The notes beneath the pieces were generated by a model, which did no database searches, had not been told where the DNA came from, and worked only from the letters and a program-made list of their open reading frames with translations. DNA of 64,000 nt from Candidatus Obscuribacteraceae bacterium (GTDB lineage Bacteria; Cyanobacteriota; Vampirovibrionia; Obscuribacterales; Obscuribacteraceae): positions 160,001 to 224,000 of the forward strand of contig JBGAHS010000005.1 in assembly GCA_044226015.1 (NCBI GenBank), in the 5' to 3' direction. The translations under genes and the position numbers were made by a program. Position 1 is the stretch's first letter. Each line of letters starts with the position of its first letter. Below are positions 48,468 to 49,462 of the stretch, in pieces.

Positions 48468-48769
48468 GCTTTTACCGTTTGGATCCGCTGTCTTTGCGGA
48501 GAAAGAGACAACTAGAGGTCATGGAGGAAGCCCCAACACGGTACTATATTTTCCCTCAATTAGACAGAGATTCCATCTCAAACTTTCTTTGGTGTTAGTG
48601 CATTGGTTTGCTTAAAGTGCTGCCGCCGTTCAAGAGCTTTGCAGCATTTGCCGTGTTTCATAAACATATTAGCTTGATTACTGCCGCCTACTGCAATACA
48701 ATTCAAGTTTATTATCGGCGATTCCTAATAGCGGTAGAAATAACGACCGGTTCGAGATCGAGGGAAGAT

Positions 48770-49462
48770 ATGGTTAAGGTAGTTTCCAGAATTTTGCTAG
48801 CGAGCACTGCTCTTCTTACTGTTATAGCAATTCCTTGTTTCGTATTCGCTGCTAATGCCGCTTATGATCAGGCGATCGGCGCCTACAAAGCAAGAAACTA
48901 TCGAGGCGCAATTCAGGGTTTTCAGACTGTATTGAAGTCCAATCCATCAGACCCTATGGCGCACTATTACTTGGCGCTCTGTTTTCAGGGAACTAATCAG
49001 ATGGCGTTAGCACGTCAGGAATACACGTGGGTGTCCAGTTGCAACAATGCGCAACTTCGTTCATATGCAGCCTCGGGTCTAGCAAATTTGAGTAAATATC
49101 CCAGCTCATATAGTGGGTCGGGTGGACATTCTTCTTTTTCTAGCAACACTGTTGCGATGGCGGGTGGCTCTCGAATTAACGGAAGGTTGAAGGTCTTAGA
49201 GTTCTACGCAGATTGGTGAGGACCGTGCAAGAAGTTCGGTCCGGACTTCGATTACGTTGCTAGTAAATACCGCAGCCAGGCTGAATTTCAGAAGCTTAAT
49301 GGTGAGGATCCAGCTAATGCTGACCTCATGAGCAAGTACAACGTAACGGGATATCCGCGTCTTGTTTTTACTGATTCGTCTGGAAGGAAACTCGATGAAA
49401 TTCGTGGAGCACCAGATCGAAGCAGTTTTGAAAGCGCTGTAAAACAATTTCTCGTCAAGTAG
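48770..49462 (+). CDS. Exported TPR-thioredoxin, probable selenoprotein (WUGPC; UGA at 49217-49219)
   Basis: Signal peptide, TPR, then LEFYADW-UGA-GPCKKF...YNVTGYPRLVF...TAG in one frame; SECIS-like hairpin follows. Confidence 0.88.
49231..49249 (+). promoter_or_regulatory. Bacterial SECIS element
   Basis: 11 nt after the UGA: GAAGTTC-GGTCC-GGACTTC; spacing and GGUC loop match E. coli fdhF. Confidence 0.75.

Follow-up and report, generated by a model that had tools for sequence, protein, structure and literature searches.

Results

An in-frame TGA divides a TPR-thioredoxin gene

The window, that is, the whole 64,000-nucleotide stretch analysed (contig JBGAHS010000005.1 of a Candidatus Obscuribacteraceae bacterium), contains a reading frame that opens with ATG at 48770, reaches TGA at 49217-49219 directly after LEFYADW and continues to TAG at 49460-49462. 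In the standard-code list of open reading frames, this frame ends at the TGA. Translation of TGA as selenocysteine (Sec, U) gave a protein of 230 aa, in which TGA is codon 150 within F-Y-A-D-W-U-G-P-C and is followed by 80 sense codons (GPCKKFGPDF...YNVTGYPRLVF...KQFLVK). The initial annotation had placed the TGA at the position of the first active-site Cys with 80 codons behind it, and the translation agreed exactly; the thioredoxin fold with its cis-Pro, which it had read as completed behind the TGA, was likewise borne out by a Pfam match over cut-off, by the structural model and by the conservation of Pro196. The features of the gene and its Cys paralogues are listed in Table 1.

Table 1. 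Features of the TPR-thioredoxin gene (window positions) and its Cys paralogues in the host genome (G000)
Feature	Position	Strand	Basis
Whole CDS, 230 aa with Sec150: signal peptide-TPR-linker-thioredoxin	48770..49462	+	Translation, Pfam, model
RBS-like GAGGG, 5 nt upstream of ATG	48760..48764	+	Sequence
Predicted Sec-pathway signal peptide	48770..48850	+	Hydrophobicity heuristic; model helix 3-19
TPR domain, five helices, residues 30-108	48857..49093	+	Pfam, alignment, model
Ser/Gly-rich flexible linker, residues 114-130, pLDDT < 50	49109..49159	+	Model
Thioredoxin domain, residues 140-228	49187..49453	+	Pfam; Foldseek
In-frame UGA, inferred Sec150, attacking position of W-U-G-P-C	49217..49219	+	Translation, alignment
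Resolving Cys153, 64/64 aligned rows	49226..49228	+	Alignment
Predicted bacterial SECIS hairpin, 8-bp stem, GUC apical loop	49231..49249	+	Folding; kin comparison
Pro196 of thioredoxin cis-Pro loop (GYP), 64/64 rows	49355..49357	+	Alignment
Cys paralogues with WCGVC, WCRVC, WCPKC, WCSHC	G000:C9:310758-311438, C8:233627-234310, C8:89107-89643, C8:417462-418091		

The read-through protein matched Pfam Thioredoxin over residues 140-225 (E 4.9e-17) and TPR_16 over residues 32-85, both above cut-off, and none of its 18 NCBIfam matches reached their cut-off. The score for TIGR01068, the equivalog of classic TrxA, was 59.5 bits against a cut-off of 96.8, placing this two-domain protein with a signal peptide outside that family, and the thioredoxin fold, the W-x-x-x-C motif and the cis-Pro place it among the thioredoxins (PF00085) with a UxxC active site. 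The predicted signal peptide has a basic N-terminal end, a hydrophobic core and an Ala-x-Ala end at residue 27 or 30, and no lipobox was found in it. A promoter-like site at 48674 was at chance level (1 found, 1.9 expected). In the 64-row alignment, Y66 and A81 of the TPR domain were invariant, W149 was nearly so, and residue 150 was C or U in every row. The lone Cys of the TPR domain, Cys71 (HYYLALC, 48980-48982 of the window), was Cys in 53 of the 64 rows and otherwise Ser or Thr.

The AlphaFold2 model, built from the 64-row alignment, had a mean pLDDT of 88 and a pTM of 0.48, and showed a helix at the N-terminus followed by the five helices of the TPR (30-108), which a disordered linker (114-130) joins to the thioredoxin domain; at this pTM, the interface between TPR and thioredoxin domains was therefore not predicted. 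The initial annotation had described an exported signal peptide-TPR-thioredoxin protein; this anatomy fits Pfam, the alignment and the model, and export and the role of the TPR stand as predictions.

The TGA is conserved in 60 genomes of the order

Homologues were found at E <= 1e-25 in 90 of the 107 Obscuribacterales genomes searched, and 60 of those 90 had a match with an internal TGA. Ninety loci were fetched with deliberate enrichment for TGA, so that the 97 codons aligned with residue 150 (65 TGA, 19 TGC, 12 TGT and 1 AGT) do not represent a frequency. The 65 TGA rows covered all 60 TGA genomes, had the TGA in the same column without exception, down to about 30% identity, and showed 73-84 open codons behind it. 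The in-frame UGA was thus aligned with the catalytic Cys of homologues, as is characteristic of bacterial selenoproteins. In three same-genus orthologues the TGA was kept, and identity was 66-70% after the TGA compared to 51-59% in the TPR part; these identities and the synonymous changes of an independent contig (below) show purifying selection downstream of the UGA.

The gene caller and the databases stop the protein at the TGA, as would be expected of a nonsense mutation, a pseudogene or an assembly error, and the initial annotation had named TGC or TGT in reads, or close relatives that all have Cys while the downstream half decays, as findings that would speak against Sec. An independent contig from another study (run X2) spanned the gene with the TGA intact and differed at four positions of the ORF, all four synonymous and all four after the TGA; relatives kept the TGA, and their downstream half was conserved rather than decaying. 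Only X2 was counted as independent, because run X1 may be the source sample and runs X5 and X7 covered the gene merely by short low-depth pieces. An accidental stop, to which we give practically no credence, is refuted by the single TGA column in 60 genomes, the 65 of 65 open frames and the synonymous changes of the X2 contig.

A quick tree of the TPR-thioredoxin family required nine changes between Sec and Cys, at least four of them forced by strong branches; the direction and number of Sec origins in the family are not settled by this tree. The Cys paralogues in the host genome share the TPR-thioredoxin architecture, and the nearest is 48% identical.

Tandem copies of the family were observed in the arrangements U-C-C (L042) and U-U (L163, L174, L184), as C-C in a genome without selA and selB (L197), and as a C copy next to an SxxC copy (L050). 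A longer signal-TPR-thioredoxin selenoprotein of about 435 aa was present in two same-genus genomes (L160:199-1503 (+), L169). It shares the SECIS and thioredoxin domain of the present gene, as would result from a duplication or a domain shuffle that took the SECIS along.

A candidate SECIS hairpin follows the UGA

The hairpin of the window spans +12 to +30, with an 8-bp stem and a GUC loop 19 nt after the UGA. The bacterial SECIS model, in the available text of its source, specifies a loop of 3-9 nt, a stem of 4-16 bp, G in the first two loop positions, a distance of 16-37 nt from the UGA and an energy of <= -7.5 kcal/mol (PMC13188914). The window hairpin agrees with the rules for loop size, stem, loop G and spacing. 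Its energy was -7.4 kcal/mol bare (z -2.1), against the model limit of -7.5, and -9.8 to -9.9 kcal/mol with flanks, a value not unusual compared with shuffles; the sequence behind the UGA as a whole also folded with ordinary energy (z -0.04 to -1.38). A competing hairpin starting at +1 was the free-RNA minimum of both the 84-nt and the 61-nt stretches, and would sit within the ribosome while the UGA is decoded. The 19-mer of the window hairpin was identical in three to four same-genus orthologues, the proteins of which are only 54-59% identical, and its changes in the two longer paralogues preserve base pairs, so that support for the window's own hairpin comes from six related sequences.

Most other TGA copies have a different hairpin, offset by about 5 nt from that of the window. 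The family hairpin was fully paired (6/6) in 46 of 57 distinct TGA rows compared to none of 31 Cys rows. In 56 of the 65 TGA rows, it showed two-sided changes at four of its six pairs, and 92% of cells paired versus 22-58% in slid controls, shuffle controls being prone to inflate significance among related sequences. Furthermore, Pro-Val was written CCC GTG in 57 of 58 TGA rows and in one of six Cys rows, that is, the synonymous positions are fixed.

The genome encodes the machinery for Sec

The host genome (8.19 Mb, 92% complete) contained selA (E 6e-125), selB (E 6.5e-98), selD (E 2.3e-109) and a tRNA-Sec (64.7 bits), the anticodon of which is UCA and which folds with a long variable arm. 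All four, which the initial annotation had proposed to look for, were above their cut-offs; each was present in one copy, and the complete set of selA, selB, selC and selD was spread over three contigs. The selD gene encodes the Cys form. The gene directly after selD looks SirA/DsrE-like (L010:2527-3135), and its product is a putative YedF-like sulfur or selenium carrier. The selA gene lies near an EF-Tu-like gene and tRNA-Thr/Tyr genes (G000:C3:256022-260518), and 18 tRNA genes are arrayed in about 2.3 kb elsewhere (G000:C10:356333-358584).

Among the 60 TGA genomes, 54 had selA, and the remaining six all had selB above cut-off. At the cut-off applied, every match in the other 30 genomes was of the non-TGA kind; 21 of these genomes had selA and nine did not. 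Sec is therefore dispensable in this protein in part of the order, as the 21 genomes show. In eight of the nine selA-less genomes, selB was absent from six (G053, G057, G061, G070, G010 and G062, the last two being 85% and 70% complete) and present in two (G026 and G082). G053, G057, G061 and G070, which are 91-95% complete, thus had neither selA nor selB, and no TGA match. Owing to kinship among the genomes the rows are not independent, and hence no P value was attached to the co-occurrence of TGA and selA.

The open frame alone would fit a variant code in which the genome generally reads TGA as Trp or Cys, a reading that we find almost inconceivable. In the host, 802 of 3388 long ORFs terminate in TGA, an internal TGA occurred in only one of 26 thioredoxin matches, namely this gene, the TGA aligns with Cys codons and tracks selA and selB, and tRNA-Sec is the sole tRNA with a UCA anticodon. 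The variant code is refuted by the frequent TGA stops, this tracking and the restriction of the UCA anticodon to tRNA-Sec.

Other selenoprotein genes occur in the genome and the order

A SelW/Rdx-like selenoprotein gene with the motif C-G-A-U (CxxU) was located at G000:C1:283855-284058 (-), with TGA at 284035 and a strong hairpin at +15. Of 80 order genomes searched, 72 have the Rdx family, and 70 of these gave Rdx matches with TGA, the position of the TGA being verified in the host's own gene and six loci; the two exceptions, G053 and G070, both lack selA and selB. A gene for MsrA with UGA at the catalytic Cys (A-A-G-U-F-W-G) was located at L212:1253-1720 (-) on G000:C8, with TGA at 621178, and at least 29 of 69 order genomes had MsrA matches with TGA, its position being verified in the host gene only. 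No MsrA hairpin passed the SECIS filter. At G000:C8:157604 (-) and G000:C1:666310 (+), a TGA likewise lies in frame between two long open stretches. None of the four molybdopterin-family matches in the genome had an internal stop, and no Sec formate dehydrogenase was found there.

A paralogue-based Cys/TGA scan gave 12,652 candidates, 26 of them with a Cys pair, and recovered the present gene and MsrA; its remaining candidates look like repeats or mobile-element debris. A motif-plus-hairpin scan gave 1,684 candidates, of which 119 passed, and recovered the present gene and SelW but dropped MsrA. The list of selenoproteins is incomplete, because both scans missed the genes at G000:C8:157604 and G000:C1:666310. 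When read-through genes were sought with a codon model, the signal was too weak, and even the present gene was not recovered.

Export and thiol-disulfide chemistry are predicted

By the hydrophobicity heuristic, a basic-hydrophobic N-terminus before the TPR was present in 62 of 65 TGA rows and 30 of the 31 other rows scored; two of the three exceptions among the TGA rows are longer TPR proteins, the true start of which lies further upstream. The long hydrophobic stretch (about residues 8-26), together with a signal peptide judged by heuristic, would also suit an uncleaved membrane anchor or a protein remaining on the cytoplasmic side. We consider this improbable, as the N-terminus is variable in sequence (7-30% identity) and keeps the basic-hydrophobic-AxA pattern before the TPR in most rows, as in cleaved signal peptides.

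Termination is established to compete with Sec insertion, and a cut at the UGA leaves the TPR domain of the model intact. The UGA might thus serve as a leaky switch, low selenium yielding a 149-aa signal-TPR product with a role of its own, the full protein being minor and Cys paralogues taking over the redox role. Such a switch is quite improbable, since no positive sign of selection on the short form was seen and the stop falls within the first strand-helix unit of the thioredoxin fold, exactly at the catalytic residue.

Two DsbD-type proteins are encoded in the genome, one adjoining a signal-peptide WCGPC thioredoxin and the other a peroxiredoxin. In the gene neighbourhood, no conserved tie to DsbD or to a substrate was found, conservation being confined to groups of at most four related loci. 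As to its chemistry, comparison with known thioredoxins makes it most likely that the protein reduces disulfides in the periplasm and is recycled by DsbD. The main alternative, conceivable if rather unlikely, is that the exported selenoprotein instead acts as an isomerase, oxidase or chaperedoxin of the PDI/DsbC or CnoX kind, the TPR holding unfolded clients while the Sec-thioredoxin domain shuffles or shields their thiols. GYP is the loop of PDI, and in the family the cis-Pro loop is YP in 25 of 64 rows and IP in 31; PDI-family chains lead the profile search of solved structures, partly owing to their repeated domains; and the xx dipeptide of the active site varies widely among Cys relatives. 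However, GP, the classic dipeptide of reducing thioredoxins, is in the majority among the TGA rows (W-x-G-P-C), and the best structural matches of the thioredoxin domain by Foldseek are classic thioredoxins (TM about 0.8 on target). CnoX, moreover, has the reverse domain order, thioredoxin first and TPR second, in about 280 aa, and is cytoplasmic. Fusions of thioredoxin and TPR (CnoX) act as holdases according to the available text of one study (PMC8129009), which favours the chaperedoxin.

Among the genomes sampled, selA is confined to non-photosynthetic members of the phylum

Obscuribacterales are diderm, non-photosynthetic Vampirovibrionia of the phylum Cyanobacteriota. No photosynthetic reaction-centre gene was found in the host genome, which has three matches to the COX1 (heme-copper oxidase) family. 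The initial annotation had spoken of the cyanobacterial lineage, which holds for the phylum, whereas the host is not an oxygenic cyanobacterium.

The selA gene was found in 86 of the 107 order genomes. In a sample of the class, 72 of 301 genomes had it; by family, the counts were 67/77 and 2/2 in two families of the order, 2/2 in one other family and 0/219 in eight further families. In a draw of 301 genomes from the phylum, 20 had selA and 120 had reaction-centre genes, with no overlap, and the 19 selA genomes outside the class belonged to five families, all without reaction centres. The full signal-TPR-thioredoxin architecture was absent from the 21 selA-positive genomes outside the order, which gave separate TPR or thioredoxin matches only; among the genomes searched, it was found in the order only. 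A TGA-bearing thioredoxin match was observed in a non-photosynthetic genome of another class (L245, G364:C26:74555-74902).

SelA was placed in a quick tree of 74 rows, outgroups being drawn from four phyla; Obscuribacterales formed one clade (support 98) and four other families a second clade (99). The two small remaining groups (L263, L264, L265, L266) fell near Desulfobacterota with weak support, and their SelA is possibly a separate acquisition. Under a simpler model, from which 15 rows on long branches or nearly duplicating others were omitted, both main clades lay on one side of a branch with a support of 75. The trees support vertical inheritance of SelA within the order; they neither establish nor contradict that Sec was ancestral in the phylum.

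Discussion

We consider it very likely that the in-frame UGA is decoded as Sec, and that the product is an exported TPR-thioredoxin with a predicted role as a thiol-disulfide oxidoreductase. The model that we propose starts from the observed position of the UGA, the open frame behind it, its conservation and the Sec machinery of the genome. SelB and Sec-tRNA would almost certainly bind the hairpin at +12 to +30 and insert Sec. The signal peptide would then, in all likelihood, export the protein, with cleavage near Ala27 or Ala30. Going by thioredoxin chemistry, the selenolate of Sec150 would probably, at moderate confidence, attack a wrong disulfide or an oxidised Cys of an envelope protein, Cys153 would resolve the bond, which leaves a selenenyl-sulfide to be re-reduced by one or other of the DsbD-type membrane proteins. 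The TPR on its flexible linker may perhaps select or hold the client. The nearest Cys paralogue (48% identical, WCGVC) is likely to be a selenium-independent back-up.

DsbC, DsbG and CcmG/TlpA are DsbD-fed periplasmic proteins with a thioredoxin fold. Like them, the present protein is a predicted exported oxidoreductase of the CxxC type in need of a membrane electron relay, and two DsbD-type genes are present, though not adjacent; it differs in having a classic thioredoxin-type domain joined to a TPR, without their dimerisation domain or membrane anchor, and Sec in place of Cys. Bacterial UxxC thioredoxins (PF00085; WP_010956703.1) are described, in the accessible parts of the sources, with the traits seen here, namely a thioredoxin fold, Sec at the attacking position, an in-frame SECIS just past the UGA and Cys homologues (PMC9312934; PMC13188914), whereas in the present protein a signal peptide and a TPR precede the thioredoxin domain. 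The CnoX/YbbN chaperedoxin (PMC8129009; PMC10998233) is a close known system; its definition comprises an N-terminal thioredoxin domain, a C-terminal TPR and no signal peptide, and the present protein, with TPR at 30-108, thioredoxin at 140-228 and a signal helix, falls outside this definition; CnoX is also Cys-based, in contrast to the predicted signal peptide, leading TPR, flexible linker and Sec found here. A cluster of Cys-form TPR-thioredoxins in the ESM Atlas (58 members, mostly Ca. Melainabacteria) has the same architecture and length, with a score of 0.97 for the Cys paralogue; the cluster is automatic, carries no function and was compared by name and Pfam content.

In a survey of 2006, Sec decoding was undetected in Cyanobacteria, and non-sampling or loss at the base was left open in the text available (PMC1794560); in that of another survey, cyanobacteria appear only for orphan SelD (PMC5029168). 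Trx UxxC, SelW-like and MsrA are known selenoprotein families (PMC9312934; PMC13188914), and the available text of the 2026 review states that aerobic bacteria rarely retain selenoproteins and does not contain the terms TPR, tetratricopeptide, signal peptide, periplasm, secreted or cyano (PMC13188914). One Sec-containing protein is annotated in Ca. Melainabacteria in the accessible part of one report (PMC9529120). The available text of BSepDB is silent on the lineage, but 18 rows of its genome table are Vampirovibrionia and 8 are Sericytochromatia (PMC13326102); some of the genes described here may already be entered in this database. In the open-access literature, neither the protein nor the use of Sec by Obscuribacterales was found to be reported; the protein is a known kind of UxxC thioredoxin, and its exported TPR-fused form and lineage are without a describing paper there. 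The suggestion of the initial annotation that the gene marks an unannotated selenoproteome holds in so far as TGA-bearing genes for SelW-like proteins and MsrA are present in this genome and throughout the order, but NCBI's automatic annotation already labels selA in Obscuribacterales MAGs.

In the protein collection, the window's protein is a 149-aa TPR-only product. The 12 hits examined, of 15 there, comprised nine that end at the Trp before the active site and three full-length Cys forms; one of the nine comes from an Obscuribacterales MAG under the name 'hypothetical protein'. Databases systematically shorten this redox family, which is widespread in the order, so that it resembles a TPR-only hypothetical protein.

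A whole order of non-photosynthetic Cyanobacteriota very likely uses Sec, as opposed to surveys reporting the trait as undetected in Cyanobacteria. The selenoproteins found are of antioxidant or envelope types, in a genome that has three genes of the heme-copper oxidase family and in which Sec formate dehydrogenase is missing; this runs counter to the usual link between Sec and anaerobiosis. The paired Sec and Cys paralogues, along with genomes that lack selA, selB and a TGA copy, provide a natural series for testing when Sec pays and whether its loss accompanied oxygenic photosynthesis. We tentatively suggest, as a possibility that the present comparisons leave rather doubtful, that oxygen-respiring Obscuribacterales have an order-wide, formate-dehydrogenase-free selenoproteome for antioxidant and envelope redox functions, and that the ancestor of Cyanobacteriota already decoded Sec, a trait that Obscuribacterales and, in another class, several non-photosynthetic families retained, whereas oxygenic cyanobacteria and small-genome Vampirovibrionia lost it. 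If ancestral Sec is true, it would tie the loss of Sec to oxygenic photosynthesis and would answer the question posed in 2006, whether Sec was unsampled or had disappeared at the base of the phylum.
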